Below are positions 19,954-42,367 of a DNA stretch of 64,000 nt, one piece after another. Numbering within the stretch: position 1 is the stretch's first letter; the number at the start of each line of letters is the position of its first letter. Below the pieces are notes generated by a model. The model saw nothing but the letters and a program-made list of their open reading frames with translations, was not told the origin of the DNA and made no database searches. The translations under genes were made by a program, and so were the position numbers. Source of the DNA: a virus (taxonomy: Duplodnaviria > Heunggongvirae > Uroviricota > Caudoviricetes); the IMG/VR virus record IMGVR_UViG_3300042006_000037, one strand, 5' to 3'.

Positions 19954-20511
19954 ATGAAGATGACAATTACCAAAGGCATGAAGGGTAGGGTATTTGCTGC
20001 TCTGATTGCTGCTGGTGTAGCTGGACCATCTGCTTACATTGCATCTGAGTTAACAGTTCCATCTGAGGGTGTTCTAACACATCTTCATTTGGACCCTGTT
20101 GGGTTGCAGACTACATGCATTGGGCACTTGGTGAAGAAAGGTGAGACACCAAAACAGAACTACACCGAAGACGAATGTATTGCTCAGTTCGTTAAAGACT
20201 GGATTATACACGAGAAGATTGTTGAACAGGCTGTGAAAGTTCCATTCAGGTCTGGTTGGATGAAAGGTGCTGTAACAGACTTCACGTTCAACAAAGGTGG
20301 TGGGAATCTAAACTCTAGCACAATGCTTACAAAGTTGAATCGTCAGGATTACGACGGTGCCTGTGTTGAGTTGACAAAATGGGTGTTTGGTACGATTGCT
20401 GGTAAGAAAGTCAAACTTAAGGGTTTGGAGATTCGAGCCAGTAAACAGTATAAATACTGTATGGGTGAGGTTCCTGCTGATTACAAACCGTTAATGAAAA
20501 CATGGGAGTAA
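19954..20511 (+). CDS. SAR endolysin (GH24 T4-lysozyme-like, phage P21 R-like), 185 aa
   Basis: N-terminal Gly/Ala-rich weakly hydrophobic SAR segment VFAALIAAGVAGPSAYIA. EGV..D..CIGH and FNKGGGNL..GAC..L..W regions match P21 R by eye. SD aggag. Confidence 0.8.
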   Translation: MKMTITKGMKGRVFAALIAAGVAGPSAYIASELTVPSEGVLTHLHLDPVGLQTTCIGHLVKKGETPKQNYTEDECIAQFVKDWIIHEKIVEQAVKVPFRSGWMKGAVTDFTFNKGGGNLNSSTMLTKLNRQDYDGACVELTKWVFGTIAGKKVKLKGLEIRASKQYKYCMGEVPADYKPLMKTWE

Positions 20512-20515
20512 CAAC

Positions 20516-20776
20516 ATGGGTAAAAGATTTTATAAACACCTGTGCAAACATTACCAACTTTACTCCTTTACTGCAAACATTCTGAATGCCGTGAGTATGG
20601 CTGGCCTTGCATTACTTGGACTTCTTACTGACACTATGGCTGTTACTTGGTTAGTCGGTTGGGGTATCATGTTCGCAATACTTTTCGGTATTGGTAAGTT
20701 ACTCGATCAAGAGATTGATGACTTGGATAAAGTTAAGGAGCATACTAATGAATCTAATTGCGGCAATAAAGAGTAA
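20516..20776 (+). CDS. putative holin (pinholin-like, two TMDs), 86 aa
   Basis: Two hydrophobic helices (VSMAGLALLGLLT and VTWLVGWGIMFAILFGIG) and a charged C-terminus. It sits immediately downstream of the SAR endolysin. Confidence 0.55.
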   Translation: MGKRFYKHLCKHYQLYSFTANILNAVSMAGLALLGLLTDTMAVTWLVGWGIMFAILFGIGKLLDQEIDDLDKVKEHTNESNCGNKE

Positions 20777-21131
20777 AGGTTTAACTCTTCTTGTTATTAT
20801 CCTGATGACGTTGCTCAGTGTTTCGTACATGTCGGGTAAGTCTGACAGGGAAGCGTTGGACGCTGCTCAGGATAAGTTACTGACACATGTAACGCTGAAC
20901 AAGCGTTTGTCTGAACAGAACTTGGAATTAGCGGAAGAGCTTAAAAACAAACCAAAAGAATATATCACCATCACAAAAGAAGTTAGTAAGGAAGTGTGTA
21001 ATGGTTTTGTAAAACAACAGGTTATAAATTCGCTACCATCCAAGAAGGGGGTTGTCAATGAAGATGCTAAGCAAAACGTTGCAGACATTGATGATCGCTT
21101 GCCTACTGATCTTATCAAGTTGCTCAAATAA
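20748..21131 (+). CDS. i-spanin (Rz-like), 127 aa
   Basis: AAGGAG SD before ATG 20748. N-terminal TMD LLVIILMTLLSVSYM, then coiled-coil periplasmic domain. Confidence 0.65.
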   Translation: MNLIAAIKSKGLTLLVIILMTLLSVSYMSGKSDREALDAAQDKLLTHVTLNKRLSEQNLELAEELKNKPKEYITITKEVSKEVCNGFVKQQVINSLPSKKGVVNEDAKQNVADIDDRLPTDLIKLLK

Positions 21132-21360
21132 GCCACCGGAGACGATTGTAGAGACGATCTATCAAAAGCAGTACATTCCCTTGGATTTGCTAAGAGTTAG
21201 TTGTATAGAGCAATCAGCGGGCGAGACAGTGCGTACTCTCGCTAGTTCATGGGTAAACAACACGAGCTGCCTTCGTGCACACCAGATTTTGGTTGAAGGA
21301 TTAATTAAAAACCATACACAAGAAGGGGCAGTCAATAATGAGCAACCCACCAGAAAGTAA
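21058..21360 (+). CDS. o-spanin (Rz1-like outer-membrane lipoprotein), 100 aa
   Basis: Signal peptide plus lipobox LLILSSC. It starts inside the i-spanin gene in another frame and extends past its stop (overlapped architecture). Confidence 0.65.
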   Translation: MKMLSKTLQTLMIACLLILSSCSNKPPETIVETIYQKQYIPLDLLRVSCIEQSAGETVRTLASSWVNNTSCLRAHQILVEGLIKNHTQEGAVNNEQPTRK

Positions 21361-21649
21361 GTTACAGGAATTGATTGCGAAGTTTGGTGGTTGGGCTGGT
21401 ATCGCTCTAGTATCCTTGTCTGCATTTATGTATCAAGGTGATAAGGCAAACACTCAGTCATCAATATCTAGTTTGGAAAAGAGTATTGCAAGTACTCAAA
21501 GGGAAATTAGTCGTCTGCAAGAAGGTAAAGTGAGTCGAGAAGAATTCAAGTCTGTTCAAGAACAATGGATTCGTGAGACGCAAGGATTACGTCAGGATAT
21601 TCGTGAACTAACTGGTGCTCTTCGTGTTGACTTGAACGCTCCAAAGTAA
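21338..21649 (+). CDS. membrane protein (1 TMD + coiled coil), 103 aa
   Basis: WAGIALVSLSAFMY TMD. Last gene before the convergent terminator. Confidence 0.5.
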   Translation: MSNPPESKLQELIAKFGGWAGIALVSLSAFMYQGDKANTQSSISSLEKSIASTQREISRLQEGKVSREEFKSVQEQWIRETQGLRQDIRELTGALRVDLNAPK

Positions 21650-31224: not shown

Positions 31225-31333
31225 GACACGGTGATGGAATTGGTAGACAGACTGGAGGATTCAGTATACGGTGACAGTTACTGATGATACTGGGGCTGAA
31301 AAGCATGTGGGTTCGACTCCCACCCGTGCCACC
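31225..31333 (+). tRNA. atypical tRNA-like element (possible tRNA gene or tRNA 3' fragment)
   Basis: D-loop-like GGAATTGGTAGAC. Canonical T-arm GTGGG-TTCGACT-CCCAC, then acceptor 3' strand CCGTGCC-A. The only 5' partner GACACGG (one A:C mismatch) gives ~107 nt, too long for a standard cloverleaf. ACGGTGA is directly repeated at 31228 and 31268. Confidence 0.4.
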
Positions 31334-31507: not shown

Positions 31508-31536
31508 TTGACACACTAATCTGACTTCCGTATAAT
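31508..31536 (+). promoter_or_regulatory. sigma70 consensus promoter (TTGACA-17-TATAAT)
   Basis: ttgacacactaatctgacttccgtataat with perfect hexamers. Drives the SPFH operon. Confidence 0.65.
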
Positions 31537-31571
31537 GGGCGTCACACAAACGATGTACTAAGGAGAATAGT

Positions 31572-32468
31572 TTGAAATTTAGCAATCTGATCAAAGCTTC
31601 CGCATTGGCACTGGCTGCAACCCTGATGGTTGGTTGTGGTGAGCGAGTTGAAGTTCCACCGGGCTTTGTCGGCAAGATCATGACAAAAGATGGTTACCAA
31701 GAAGGTTTGATTCCAACTTCGAAGCTTCGTCTTCCATTCTGTAATGCTTACTGTGATCGTCTGGTAGTACTGGACACCACCGACAAGTCTTATGTTGAAC
31801 CGATGGAAATCTTCATTCCCGGCGACAAGCTGATTGTAAAGGTTGATCTGCGTGCAACGCTGTCTGTTGACCCAACCAAAGCTGAAGCAATGTTCAACAA
31901 GCTTCCTCAAGTTGCAGAGACTGACCAATTCAGTAAGATTTCTGCTGAGTCGATCTACGGGACATATGGTCGTCAGGTGTTGCAAGCTGAAGTTCGTTCG
32001 TACCTGACTCGATACACCATTTCCGAAATTGCTTCGAATGGTGAGAAGATCAACGCTGACATTCAGGTGATTCTGTCTAAGGTAATGTCTGAGCGTACAC
32101 CGTTTACTGTACGATATGCTGGTTTGACCAACATTAAGTACCCACCAATCATCACCGAAGCACAAGAGAACAGTGCAAAACGTCGTGAGATGATCGCTCA
32201 GGAAGAAGCAGCACTCGAAGTAAGCAAGGTTCAACTGTCTCGTGAACTGCAAGAAGCCAAGATGCAGCGTGCAATTGACAAAGAGAAAGCTGAGACAGAA
32301 GCTCAAGCACAAATGGTATTGGCAGCCGCTGTAGATCCTCGCTCCCTGCGTATCAAAGAGCTTGAGATTCAGAAGATTCTGGCTGAGAAGTGGGATGGTG
32401 GTCTGCCGCAAACAATCATGGGTGGTGACGGTAATATCCCAATGATCATGGACATGCGTAACAAGTAA
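31572..32468 (+). CDS. SPFH/band-7 (stomatin/prohibitin/HflKC-like) domain lipoprotein, 298 aa (TTG start)
   Basis: AAGGAG 7 nt before the TTG. Signal peptide plus lipobox LMVGCG. SPFH-like core followed by a long charged coiled-coil (EEAALEVSKVQLSRELQEAKMQRAIDKEKAETEAQAQ). Confidence 0.6.
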   Translation: MKFSNLIKASALALAATLMVGCGERVEVPPGFVGKIMTKDGYQEGLIPTSKLRLPFCNAYCDRLVVLDTTDKSYVEPMEIFIPGDKLIVKVDLRATLSVDPTKAEAMFNKLPQVAETDQFSKISAESIYGTYGRQVLQAEVRSYLTRYTISEIASNGEKINADIQVILSKVMSERTPFTVRYAGLTNIKYPPIITEAQENSAKRREMIAQEEAALEVSKVQLSRELQEAKMQRAIDKEKAETEAQAQMVLAAAVDPRSLRIKELEIQKILAEKWDGGLPQTIMGGDGNIPMIMDMRNK

Positions 32469-32532
32469 TCGTGTAAGACTGAATATGAGCGGCTGTCAAT
32501 ATGCGGTCGCTCATTAAACTAAGGAGTTTGAC

Positions 32533-32736
32533 ATGCTTGGTAAGATTCTTGTAACTAGACCGTTTGGTGAGATTGAGGAACTAGGTGGTGACCCGGATGG
32601 TTTGGGTATTGGCTGTGAGGTTGTAGTGAGTGGTGTTGACTGTGAGTATGTCTACATTGATGGTGAAACATATACTTTGGAACCAGACGGTCGTGGTTTG
32701 AGTTGGAAAACATTCTTCACAGCTAAGGAGTTGTAA
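32533..32736 (+). CDS. small beta-rich protein, possible NfeD-like OB/beta-barrel partner of the SPFH protein, 67 aa
   Basis: AAGGAG SD. GEIEELGGDPDGLGIGCEVVVSGVDCEYVYIDGETYTLE resembles the NfeD C-terminal beta-barrel pattern. Operon partner of the SPFH gene. Confidence 0.4.
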   Translation: MLGKILVTRPFGEIEELGGDPDGLGIGCEVVVSGVDCEYVYIDGETYTLEPDGRGLSWKTFFTAKEL

Positions 32737-33062
32737 TGGTTTTCCTGATTAACATAGTTCCATTTCTGATTATCTTCTTTGGTGGACTTGTCATTTGCTT
32801 CGTACCGGGATGGAAGCGTAAAGTTGGTACTGCACTGATCGCTCTTGGTCTAATCGTTCTTTACAATCAAATCCAACCAAGTTACATACCGAAGGGTACA
32901 GTCAAAGCACTTCCAAACACAGCGTTCCACACAGTTGACAAACCAATTGTTGATCTGTTGCTGAAACCGAAATCAGCTACCGAGTATGACGCTGAACGTA
33001 ACAAGGCACTTGAAGAAATTGACAATAGCATTAACCAACAAATTAAATTGAATAAGGAGTAA
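32736..33062 (+). CDS. membrane protein (2 TMDs), 108 aa
   Basis: ATG overlaps the upstream TAA. TMDs IVPFLIIFFGGLVICFV and GTALIALGLIVLY. Confidence 0.5.
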   Translation: MVFLINIVPFLIIFFGGLVICFVPGWKRKVGTALIALGLIVLYNQIQPSYIPKGTVKALPNTAFHTVDKPIVDLLLKPKSATEYDAERNKALEEIDNSINQQIKLNKE

Positions 33063-33066
33063 CAAC

Positions 33067-33195
33067 ATGGGTAAAATCTTCTACGAACAAGCACATCCAC
33101 AAGGCACCACCCAAACCGCTGGTCACAAAGCATTCAAGGTGTCTGCACCAAAGAGTCGTAAACGTGGTCGTGGTAACGTTCAAGTAAGCGCATAA
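33067..33195 (+). CDS. small basic protein, 42 aa, high-expression codon usage (not in ORF track)
   Basis: AAGGAG SD. Translates MGKIFYEQAHPQGTTQTAGHKAFKVSAPKSRKRGRGNVQVSA. A terminator follows directly. Confidence 0.45.
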   Translation: MGKIFYEQAHPQGTTQTAGHKAFKVSAPKSRKRGRGNVQVSA

Positions 33196-33199
33196 GATG

Positions 33200-33238
33200 A
33201 AGCCCCACACAATGATTGCATTGGGTGGGGCTTTTTCA
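33200..33238 (+). terminator. rho-independent terminator ending the SPFH operon
   Basis: GCCCCAC-16 nt-GTGGGGC stem followed by TTTTTC. Confidence 0.7.
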
Positions 33239-33264: not shown

Positions 33265-33293
33265 TTGACAGGAATGTCCACCGACTGTAGAAT
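33265..33293 (+). promoter_or_regulatory. sigma70 promoter (TTGACA-17-TAGAAT, TG-extended)
   Basis: ttgacaggaatgtccaccgacTGTAGAAT. Confidence 0.6.
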
Positions 33294-35135: not shown

Positions 35136-37064
35136 TTGACTGAAAGTTTGATCGATAAGGTAATTAAACACTACCACCCTAAATACGATGGTAGTGATAA
35201 AATCTGCTGCCCGTTCCATAAAGAAAGAAGTCCGTCATTCAACGTATACCATCACCAACATACTTATTACTGTTATGGTTGTGGTGCTGGTAGCACTCCT
35301 ATTGACTTTGTTGCTGACAGTGAGGGGTTGGATGCAAAAGAAGAGTTCATTAAAGTCCGTGACTTGACAATGAGCATTCTGGGGATGACATACGAGAAAT
35401 ATCAAGAGGAGAGAAAGAAAGTGAGTGATGTGCAAGTGATGACAAACGATTGTCTTCCGGCGATGACAGATGAGGAAGTGCGTGCGTTCATTGCAAGTGC
35501 TCATCGTGAAATCAATGGTCGTAAAGTAAGCGGTTACAGCGGTATGGGTTATCGTGGGATTAAAGATGAATATCTTAAGTTCTTCGGTCATCTAACTAAG
35601 AAAGATGATGATGGTAAAGTAATTAGTCGTCACTATCCTGAGACAAACACTAAAGGTAAGTTGTCTGGTTATAAGTGCCGCAACCATCCTAAAGACTTTC
35701 GTTATGGCAATATTGGTAGTACAGGCGGTAAGAACCAACTTAGTGGTCAAGTTAAATACTCTGGTCACAACAAGTACATCTTGATTGTAGGTGGTGAAGA
35801 GGATAAAGTTGCAGCCTATCAGATGTTCGAAGAGAACCGTGCGGGTAAAGGTAACATTGCCCCTGTTCATGTGGTTAGCCCAACATGTGGTGAGAACAGT
35901 GCAGTTAAACAGATTGCCTCTCAGTATTCCTTCTTCGATATGTATGAACAAATCATTATTGGTATGGATAATGACGAAGCTGGACATAAAGCAGCGAAAG
36001 CAATTGCTGAAGTTCTCCCGAAAGAGAAAGTTAAGGTAGTAGTTTGGACTGGTAAAGATCCAAACAAGATGCTGGAAGATGGTTTAGCTGGTGTGTTTGT
36101 TCGTGACTTCTATAACGCTAAACCGTTGATTGCTTCTGGTATTGTTGAGTCAACTGGTTTGATGGATCAAGTTCGTGAAGAGTTGATGCGTCCACGAATC
36201 AAGCTACCACCTGAGTGGTCTGAGGTTGAACGGGCGATGAAAGGTGGTATCCGTCAAGGTTCCATCGTCAACATTATCGGTGACACTTCAGTTGGTAAGT
36301 CTACTGTAATTAATGGACTTAATTACTTCTGGATGTTTAACGCACCAGAGAAAGTTGGTGTTGTTAGTCTTGAGGCAACTTCTGGTCAGTATACGTTGGA
36401 CATGTTGAGCTTGCATCTTGAGAAAAACCTTTTGTGGATTGGTGAAGGTGAAGACATTCTTGCCTATCTTGATCGACCAGATGTAGTTAGTTTATATGAC
36501 AACTTGTTGACTTCTGAATCTGGTGAACCACGATTCTCTATCTTGGATGAACGAGATGGTGACATCAAGATGTTGGAACGCCAGATTGACAAACTGATTC
36601 ACCAGTATGGTTGCAAGATTATTGTGATCGACGTACTGACTGACATTCTTCGCGGTATGAGTTCTGACATGCAAGAAGAACACATGAAATACCAGAAGCA
36701 AATTGTTAAGACAGGTGTTACAATCATCAACGTGCTACACACACGTAAACCCGCTGGTGGTGATGGTACATGGCGGAAAGCGAGCGAATATGACGCTTTC
36801 GGTAGTAGTTCATTTGTACAGTCTGCCGCGTATAACATCGTCATTAGTCGTAACAAGATGGCACAAGATGTTATCGAACGAAACCTGACACACGTTGACA
36901 TGCCTAAGTGTCGCGGTGGTGAAACCGGCGAGATTATGCAATTGTTGTATGACACTGAAACACGCTTGATGGTAAACTATGATGAATGGCTTGCACGGCA
37001 GGCTAGTATGTCTAACCATAGTGATAACGGTCACGCCCAACAAGATGGTGATCCGGGTTTCTGA
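35136..37064 (+). CDS. bifunctional DNA primase-helicase (T7 gp4-like: CHC2 zinc finger + TOPRIM + DnaB-family helicase), 642 aa (TTG start)
   Basis: GAGGAGAG 5 nt before the TTG. Zn motif CCPFH..CYGCG, then a TOPRIM region (predicted), then Walker A GDTSVGKST and RecA-like helicase motifs. Confidence 0.8.
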   Translation: MTESLIDKVIKHYHPKYDGSDKICCPFHKERSPSFNVYHHQHTYYCYGCGAGSTPIDFVADSEGLDAKEEFIKVRDLTMSILGMTYEKYQEERKKVSDVQVMTNDCLPAMTDEEVRAFIASAHREINGRKVSGYSGMGYRGIKDEYLKFFGHLTKKDDDGKVISRHYPETNTKGKLSGYKCRNHPKDFRYGNIGSTGGKNQLSGQVKYSGHNKYILIVGGEEDKVAAYQMFEENRAGKGNIAPVHVVSPTCGENSAVKQIASQYSFFDMYEQIIIGMDNDEAGHKAAKAIAEVLPKEKVKVVVWTGKDPNKMLEDGLAGVFVRDFYNAKPLIASGIVESTGLMDQVREELMRPRIKLPPEWSEVERAMKGGIRQGSIVNIIGDTSVGKSTVINGLNYFWMFNAPEKVGVVSLEATSGQYTLDMLSLHLEKNLLWIGEGEDILAYLDRPDVVSLYDNLLTSESGEPRFSILDERDGDIKMLERQIDKLIHQYGCKIIVIDVLTDILRGMSSDMQEEHMKYQKQIVKTGVTIINVLHTRKPAGGDGTWRKASEYDAFGSSSFVQSAAYNIVISRNKMAQDVIERNLTHVDMPKCRGGETGEIMQLLYDTETRLMVNYDEWLARQASMSNHSDNGHAQQDGDPGF

Positions 37065-40667: not shown

Positions 40668-40696
40668 TTGACAACCGTACACCACAAGCGTATAAT
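40668..40696 (+). promoter_or_regulatory. sigma70 consensus promoter (TTGACA-17-TATAAT)
   Basis: ttgacaaccgtacaccacaagcgtataat. Confidence 0.65.
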
Positions 40697-42311: not shown

Positions 42312-42338
42312 TAATGTTTAAAAGTGCTTTAAAGTAGT

Positions 42339-42367
42339 TGACAACAGTCTTCTACCTCTGTATAATA
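42339..42367 (+). promoter_or_regulatory. sigma70 consensus promoter (TTGACA-17-TATAAT, TG-extended)
   Basis: ttgacaacagtcttctacctcTGTATAAT. A 10-bp perfect inverted repeat follows immediately. Confidence 0.65.

Follow-up and report, generated by a model that had tools for sequence, protein, structure and literature searches.

The 64,000-nucleotide (nt) stretch of viral DNA analysed here (IMG/VR record IMGVR_UViG_3300042006_000037, Caudoviricetes; hereafter the window) carries a compact operon headed by a gene for a lipoprotein of the SPFH/Band_7 superfamily. A first-pass annotation of this DNA had described the locus as a discrete promoter-to-terminator unit of a virulent-type phage, encoding an SPFH lipoprotein with a long coiled coil, an NfeD-like beta-rich protein, a membrane protein with two transmembrane (TM) segments and a basic peptide. 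What we add is the resolution of that unit into an SPFH lipoprotein and a specific two-TM partner, a pair common to phages and Comamonadaceae, and the removal of the NfeD analogy. The promoter, the four open reading frames (ORFs; lengths in amino acids, aa), the hairpin and the terminator are laid out as follows.

31508-31536, + strand: sigma-70-type promoter, TTGACA and TATAAT separated by 17 nt, matching the consensus at 12 of 12 positions
31572-32468, + strand: ORF1, SPFH/Band_7 lipoprotein (predicted), 298 aa, TTG start
32485-32514, + strand: intercistronic GC-rich hairpin with a 12-bp stem, just 3' of the ORF1 stop codon
32533-32736, + strand: ORF2, predicted soluble SH3-like small beta-barrel protein, 67 aa
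32736-33062, + strand: ORF3, two-TM membrane protein, 108 aa
33067-33195, + strand: ORF4, basic peptide, 42 aa
33196-33238, + strand: intrinsic terminator, long GC-rich hairpin then UUUUU, judged by fold energy

An AAGGAG ribosome-binding site precedes the start of each of the four ORFs by 5-7 nt, and because each ORF has homologues in related phages we take all four to be real genes. At the 3' end, the hairpin at 33196-33237 has a folding energy of -25.6 kcal/mol (z -4.5, including the UUUUU run; 0 of 200 shuffles folded as well), giving a stable GC-rich stem with an immediate U-run that a simple terminator scanner missed, probably owing to internal bulges. The 12/12 promoter, the four + strand genes and the strong terminator bear out the proposed promoter-to-terminator unit.

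ORF1 is a true SPFH/Band_7 protein. Its sequence matches Pfam Band_7 (PF01145; E = 8.7e-11, 42.6 bits against a cut-off of 23.6, residues 27-214) and the PHROG family phrog_200, named 'lipoprotein' (E = 2.6e-50). An AlphaFold2 model with a predicted local distance difference test (pLDDT) score of 73.9, and of 78-89 in the core, contains both an SPFH alpha/beta domain, with strands at residues 63-99 and 178-189, and a long helical region, with helices at 192-253 and 256-273. A Foldseek comparison with the PDB, the check that the first-pass annotation had named, recovered the SPFH fold: the model aligned over its full length with prohibitin, HflK/C, stomatin, QmcA, erlin and flotillin (E = 1e-11 to 1e-5, probability 1.00).

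The N terminus of ORF1, MKFSNLIKASALALAATLMVG-C22, reads as a signal peptide with the lipobox LMVGC, the codon for Cys22 lying at 31635-31637. A lipobox is present in 42 of the 43 IMG/VR viral loci carrying an SPFH gene that made up our gene-linkage survey, and C22, C57 and C61 are invariant in an alignment of 29 ORF1 homologues, the conservation of C57 and C61 fitting an exported protein. From these signals ORF1 is a predicted exported lipoprotein anchored at Cys22. The residues after this cysteine are G-E-R and the SPFH domain begins about five residues past it, so that the lipid anchor would replace the N-terminal TM helix of HflK/C; the C-terminal tail ends in ...PMIMDMRNK. The Band_7 match, the lipobox and the modelled helices together uphold the description of ORF1 as a lipoprotein of the SPFH type carrying a long stretch of helix or coiled coil. 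A 289-aa ORF runs antisense to ORF1 (31542-32411, - strand); because all the homology and family support that we found belongs to the + strand ORF1, the antisense frame is probably its shadow.

ORF3 has hydrophobic segments at about residues 3-23 and 31-45, as the first-pass annotation had described, with a basic loop (GWKRK) between them that is conserved throughout its family. In the family alignment the second segment is followed by an invariant juxtamembrane motif, QPSY(M/I)PKGTV, and then by a charged tail. As the basic loop fits the positive-inside rule, the loop would be cytoplasmic and the motif and tail periplasmic, in the same compartment as the SPFH domain. The gene is also linked to that of the lipoprotein: 41 of the 43 IMG/VR loci have a small two-TM gene whose start is no more than about 260 nt beyond the SPFH stop codon, and an ORF3-type hidden Markov model matches in 29 of the 43. 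Immediately 3' of the SPFH gene, the Pseudomonas-phage relatives as well as Variovorax and Aeromonas phages encode an ORF3 homologue, and in Acidovorax phage ACP17, Alteromonas phage PT11-V22 and KVP40 a gene of like two-TM architecture occupies the same position. The survey of related phages that had been asked for thus finds the SPFH and two-TM pair to be widespread, and by conservation and linkage ORF3 is a real partner of the SPFH lipoprotein, with ORF1 and ORF3 forming the operon core. None of 22 members of the ORF3 family matched Pfam NfeD at E ≤ 1, and a search of the PDB with the ORF3 profile gave chance-level matches only, none of them to NfeD. For KVP40.0338 (L019, 2928-3287), directly downstream of the KVP40 SPFH gene, GenBank notes a match to PF04186, which we take to be FxsA; we dropped this lead, as current Pfam gives no family for the protein at E ≤ 1.

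The pair also occurs outside phages, in at least 13 genomes of Comamonas, Acidovorax, Lampropedia and Thiopseudomonas (L022-L034), whose SPFH proteins share 53-60% identity with ORF1. None of these bacterial cassettes contains ORF2 or ORF4. In the four bacterial loci whose flanks we scanned, the neighbours are ordinary chromosomal genes, for example GGDEF, KAS and FMN-binding (PaiB-like), and no prophage genes lie within 3 kb of the pair in the loci examined. Even two strains of C. testosteroni have unlike flanks (GGDEF, PaiB-like and HSDR_N neighbours). Because the flanking genes differ between bacterial loci, the SPFH and two-TM cassette is suggestive of a mobile two-gene unit.

ORF2 had been likened to the OB-fold barrel of NfeD. 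Its small size and beta-rich character stand: the structure model is of five strands at a pLDDT of 93.8. The NfeD likeness does not. The modelled fold is, with confidence, an SH3-like small barrel (FeoA/Tudor-like) and not an OB fold, and its resemblance to FeoA-type, Tudor and KOW SH3-like barrels is one of fold only, with 7-13% sequence identity, so that no function is transferable. ORF2 aligned with nine homologues gave no match to Pfam NfeD (PF01957) at E ≤ 1; ORF2 against Pfam, and its profile against PDB sequences, gave nothing beyond chance level; and its structure found nothing significant in BFVD (best E = 0.029). Nor is it a barrel carried on N-terminal TM helices: ORF2 has no signal peptide or other export signal and no TM segment, and is therefore expected to be cytoplasmic, whereas the SPFH domain is predicted to be exported. 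Consistent linkage to the SPFH gene, as seen in NfeD operons, is also lacking, as ORF2 lies beside that gene in only 5 of the 43 viral loci and is missing from relatives of 95% and 88% identity. The most fitting reading is that ORF2 is a co-transcribed passenger, an accessory gene that in this lineage was inserted between the two genes of the core.

A word-indexed search with ORF2 returned only the window's own protein, and an exhaustive search of 1.84 billion representatives returned 12 matches, made up of a small family of 67-79-aa proteins and of partial matches to immunoglobulin (Ig)-like repeats in giant proteins. One family member, P0006 (79 aa; L015, 3001-3240), comes from a different, phage-like setting: RNase_H_2 and dGTP_diPhyd_N (dGTP triphosphohydrolase-like) genes are near it, and an SPFH gene is not present within 3 kb. 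The repeat matches fall in several stretches of Big_12/Big_13 Ig-like repeats of surface proteins of 2,600-3,450 aa (P0002, P0003, P0007 and P0010); we rejected them as whole-domain homology to ORF2, as they are partial and inflated by repeat number. What underlies the resemblance may be a beta-hairpin motif common to both, or else an artefact of composition.

ORF4 is the basic peptide that had been described, with 8 Lys/Arg against 1 Asp/Glu and the stretch …PKSRKRGRG…, and comparison with its homologue in phage Kremar, which shows 17 synonymous-only against 4 non-synonymous codon changes, points to strong purifying selection. Its assignment to the SPFH module fails. Proteins 81-90% identical to ORF4 are encoded by Otagovirus-type Pseudomonas phages that otherwise share little with the window (L020, 3001-3129; L021, 3001-3129), where the gene follows the DNA polymerase gene and no SPFH gene is nearby, and the gene is found in 12 of the 43 SPFH loci. 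Judged by this distribution, ORF4 is co-transcribed here as a passenger, genetically independent of the SPFH pair.

The operon promoter is one of six sites in the window with at most one mismatch to TTGACA-17-TATAAT, all on the + strand, against 0.59 expected by chance. Three are perfect (31508-31536, 40668-40696 and 42338-42366) and three have one mismatch (29501, 33265-33293 and 58289), the site at 33265-33293 (11/12) starting 30 nt past the operon terminator. Like T5, the phage seems to depend strongly on host-type promoters of consensus sequence. In vB_PpS_SYP, two metagenomic relatives and KVP40, an equally strong promoter precedes the SPFH start by 59-69 nt, scoring 12/12 in loci L003 and L014 and 11/12 in L006 and KVP40. 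Because the position of this strong promoter is conserved in divergent phages, the operon would be transcribed early by host RNA polymerase. The hairpin that follows ORF1 (32485-32514) folds at -23.9 kcal/mol (z -4.85) and is without a proper U-tract; a hairpin stands after the SPFH stop codon in five further loci as well (L001, L002, L003, L006 and L014), with the structure kept while the sequences differ. It may act as a partial terminator or attenuator, or as a stabilizer of the mRNA 3' end, in either case raising ORF1 over the downstream genes.

The remainder of the window agrees with the claim that a virulent-type phage carries the unit. Its proteins include a tape-measure protein, a J-type central tail fibre, a major head protein, a DNA polymerase, a primase/helicase, a ribonucleotide reductase and an RNA ligase, and this gene content has the profile of a large virulent-type siphovirus, a Pseudomonas-like phage. 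Around the operon is a run of small genes on the + strand, bounded by a divergent region near 29.5 kb on one side and by the primase gene at 35136 on the other. A protein identical to ORF1 and another 99% identical to ORF2 are encoded on a 105,638-bp contig from a food metagenome (ENA ERZ940659). By ORF1 protein identity (67-77%) the nearest cultured relatives are the Pseudomonas phages Boevelstad, vB_PseuGesM_254, vB_PpS_SYP and Ep020; Megablast of the region found no near-identical phage record, and the cultured relatives are not close at the DNA level. A lysis cassette (19954-21649) sits after the tail-fibre genes.

19954-20511, + strand: endolysin (phrog_7, E = 7e-31)
20516-20776, + strand: small gene matching a PHROG of unknown function
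21338-21649, + strand: Rz-like spanin (weak match, E = 5.5e-4)

At 31225-31331 (+ strand), 177 nt upstream of the SPFH promoter, is a tRNA-like element whose acceptor stem, D-arm and T-arm are clean (GGGUUCGACUCCC) but whose variable region carries a 39-nt insertion. Its score with the Rfam tRNA model, 26.4 bits, falls short of the gathering score of 29, and ARAGORN found no tRNA in any part of the window. In T5, a tRNA-Arg gene likewise lies immediately upstream of the SPFH gene T5.080.

From the observed gene identities, folds, signals and gene linkage, we lean, by a small measure, towards an early operon whose ORF1 and ORF3 core forms a periplasm-facing membrane-scaffold cage with an integral-membrane adaptor. 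ORF1 would be exported and lipid-anchored at Cys22, with its SPFH domain lying flat on a periplasm-facing leaflet, most likely that of the inner membrane. With HflK/C, prohibitin, stomatin and QmcA as analogues, we infer that its helical region of about 80 residues could line up laterally with its neighbours to form a ring or cage enclosing a patch of membrane. ORF3 would span the inner membrane twice, its basic loop in the cytoplasm and its QPSYMPKG motif and charged tail at the periplasmic surface, and would serve as an integral-membrane adaptor or as an enclosed client of the lipoprotein cage, a role that falls to NfeD or to the N-terminal TM helix in other SPFH systems. The hairpin after ORF1 would probably cut read-through and so leave the scaffold in excess of its partner. 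During infection the pair may stabilize or compartmentalize the cell envelope, a generic function in membrane physiology that would be borrowed from, or shared with, bacteria.

Several points weigh against this arrangement. We infer the oligomerization of ORF1, its contact with ORF3 and the membrane that holds the lipoprotein, and our literature search for a functional study or phenotype of a phage SPFH protein found none. The ORF1 model is only moderate overall, at a predicted template modelling score of 0.49 beside the pLDDT given above. Two of the 43 viral loci are without a partner gene, and alignment of the ORF3 profile with the two-TM genes of ACP17, PT11-V22 and KVP40 by hhalign gave probabilities of 32%, 7% and 0.8%, so that these genes read as positional analogues of ORF3 whose homology to it is weak or undetectable.

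Other functions can be proposed for an early envelope protein pair. Superinfection exclusion is one: the lipoprotein and its inner-membrane partner might stop a second phage from getting its DNA into the cell or through the periplasm. Exclusion by phage lipoproteins, T5 Llp for one, is well established, and by outcome such a block would be comparable to those of T5 Llp, T4 Imm/Sp and P22 SieA. The strong host-type promoter directly upstream, conserved in position, and the predicted placement of ORF1 and ORF3 in the envelope both fit this idea. However, bacterial chromosomes carry the pair too, amid ordinary genes and, in the loci examined, with no prophage gene within 3 kb, the family is found in phages of very different receptors and tail types (T5-like, T4-like, Kayvirus and, by published report, N4-like), and nothing in an SPFH scaffold points to receptor masking; also counting against exclusion, a PADLOC scan of the four operon proteins returned no defence model at E ≤ 0.1. 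The bacterial copies and the phage spread argue against receptor-type exclusion specifically, a block at the inner membrane being a possible form of it, and we regard exclusion as a whole as unlikely. We are a shade more doubtful that the cage mimics HflK/C, capturing or regulating the host FtsH protease or another inner-membrane machine and so altering the turnover of membrane proteins. The full-length Foldseek likeness of ORF1 to HflK/C in FtsH complexes (7vhq, 9cz2 and 7wi3; TMq up to 0.58) and the predicted periplasmic orientation, as in HflK/C, speak for such mimicry, but identity in the Foldseek alignments is only 14-17%, an NCBIfam scan of ORF1 gave no HflK or HflC match at E ≤ 0.1, a PDB sequence search with ORF1 found chance-level matches only and no SPFH protein, and ORF1 would act as a single lipid-anchored paralogue and not as a TM-anchored hetero-pair. 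Moreover, Foldseek gave a lower E value for prohibitin than for HflK/C, which places the likeness at the level of the superfamily and not of HflK/C in particular.

A part in lysis timing would make ORF3 a holin- or antiholin-like protein organized or restrained by the SPFH lipoprotein, or would make the two a spanin-like bridge between an outer-membrane lipoprotein and an inner-membrane protein. The small size, two TM segments and charged C-terminal tail of ORF3 are generic features of holins, a lipoprotein paired with an inner-membrane protein recalls Rz/Rz1, and in Kayvirus the SPFH gene mbpS, located between tgl and the endolysin gene lysK, has a small TM gene of holin-like character as its neighbour (PMC7150955). 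Against this, the window's own lysis cassette lies about 10 kb away, so that ORF3 is not a small TM protein beside an endolysin, the operon stands among replication-region genes behind a host-type promoter, and the bacterial copies have no lysis gene among the neighbours examined; we judge a lysis role very improbable. Least credible is the complex suggested by the first-pass annotation, of SPFH-NfeD type, with ORF2 as the NfeD OB fold and ORF3 as its membrane anchor. ORF2 is indeed a small five-stranded barrel encoded between the SPFH and TM genes in the window and in several relatives, and SPFH-NfeD operons are common in bacteria (PMC13086221), but the missing NfeD match and TM segment and the sporadic linkage of ORF2 largely refute it.

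The periplasm-facing scaffold that we favour could be given a broader form, which we put forward tentatively and think rather unlikely: a new type of NfeD-independent cage, made early by many unrelated virulent phages to keep the host envelope intact or energized. If so, the cage could resist membrane-collapsing abortive-infection responses or damage from DNA injection, and the pair would be a widespread phage module for envelope maintenance or counter-defence, with a free-living counterpart in Comamonadaceae. SPFH scaffolds organize membranes across every domain of life, and hundreds of phages, the model phage T5 among them, encode one. If the pair protects or partitions the envelope in infection, it adds a membrane-scaffold class to the functions by which phages take over their hosts; if not, it is one more accessory gene.

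Annotations of SPFH lipoproteins in phages are already widespread (T5.080, KVP40.0339, PHROG 200). With tblastn we found the ORF1 family in 696 phage records, covering T5, T5-like Salmonella and E. coli phages, KVP40 and other T4-like phages, and Pseudomonas, Aeromonas, Vibrio and Staphylococcus phages, those of Staphylococcus being among the weak matches; the 385-kb Xanthomonas phage XacN1 also carries a homologue. KVP40.0339 was originally annotated through a match to TIGR01933, presumably the HflK model, which also speaks for HflK/C mimicry. An SPFH Pfam match in T4-like phages was tabulated in 2006 (PMC1524935), and a 2026 paper on an N4-like phage states that the reason for the presence of the SPFH gene 'remains unclear' (PMC13239085).

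Published structures of the periplasm-facing HflK/C cage and of the QmcA-YbbJ SPFH-NfeD cage, as cited in PMC13086221, are precedents for such a scaffold. Like ORF1, the HflK/C proteins of the E. coli HflK/HflC-FtsH cage carry a long wall helix after the SPFH domain (Foldseek TMq 0.57-0.58 over the full length), and that cage faces the periplasm from the inner membrane, as predicted for ORF1. However, HflK/C is a TM-anchored hetero-oligomer of two paralogues enclosing FtsH, whereas ORF1 is a single protein, predicted to be lipid-anchored and about 15% identical. The SPFH-NfeD operons (QmcA-YbbJ, FloA-NfeD and PH1511-PH1510) follow the same logic as the pair described here, an SPFH scaffold gene with a small membrane-partner gene, and the QmcA structure 8z5g is among the Foldseek matches to ORF1 (E = 2.7e-8). 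Their partner, however, has an NfeD domain, which we did not find in ORF3 by the searches above, and QmcA-YbbJ protrudes into the cytoplasm (PMC13086221), whereas ORF1 is predicted to be exported. The Kayvirus proteins MbpS and MbpV likewise come from a phage SPFH gene beside a gene for a small TM protein (PMC7150955), but MbpS belongs to a Gram-positive host and a lysis-gene neighbourhood, lacks a lipobox and shows only 26% similarity to ORF1 at E = 4e-6.

A further comparison is within the PHROG 200 family itself (T5.080, KVP40.0339, Aeh1 ORF064c, 44RR ORF098c and RB43 ORF139c), to which ORF1 is homologous. T5.080 shares with ORF1 the C-terminal tail ...QTV.G...MIMDMRNK; its N terminus is basic and followed by a TM helix, with no cysteine, and its gene has no partner, a terminator coming next. 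T5.080 thus combines a TM anchor with the absence of a partner, whereas the clade of the window combines a lipobox with ORF3, as would be expected if ORF3 supplies the integral-membrane element.

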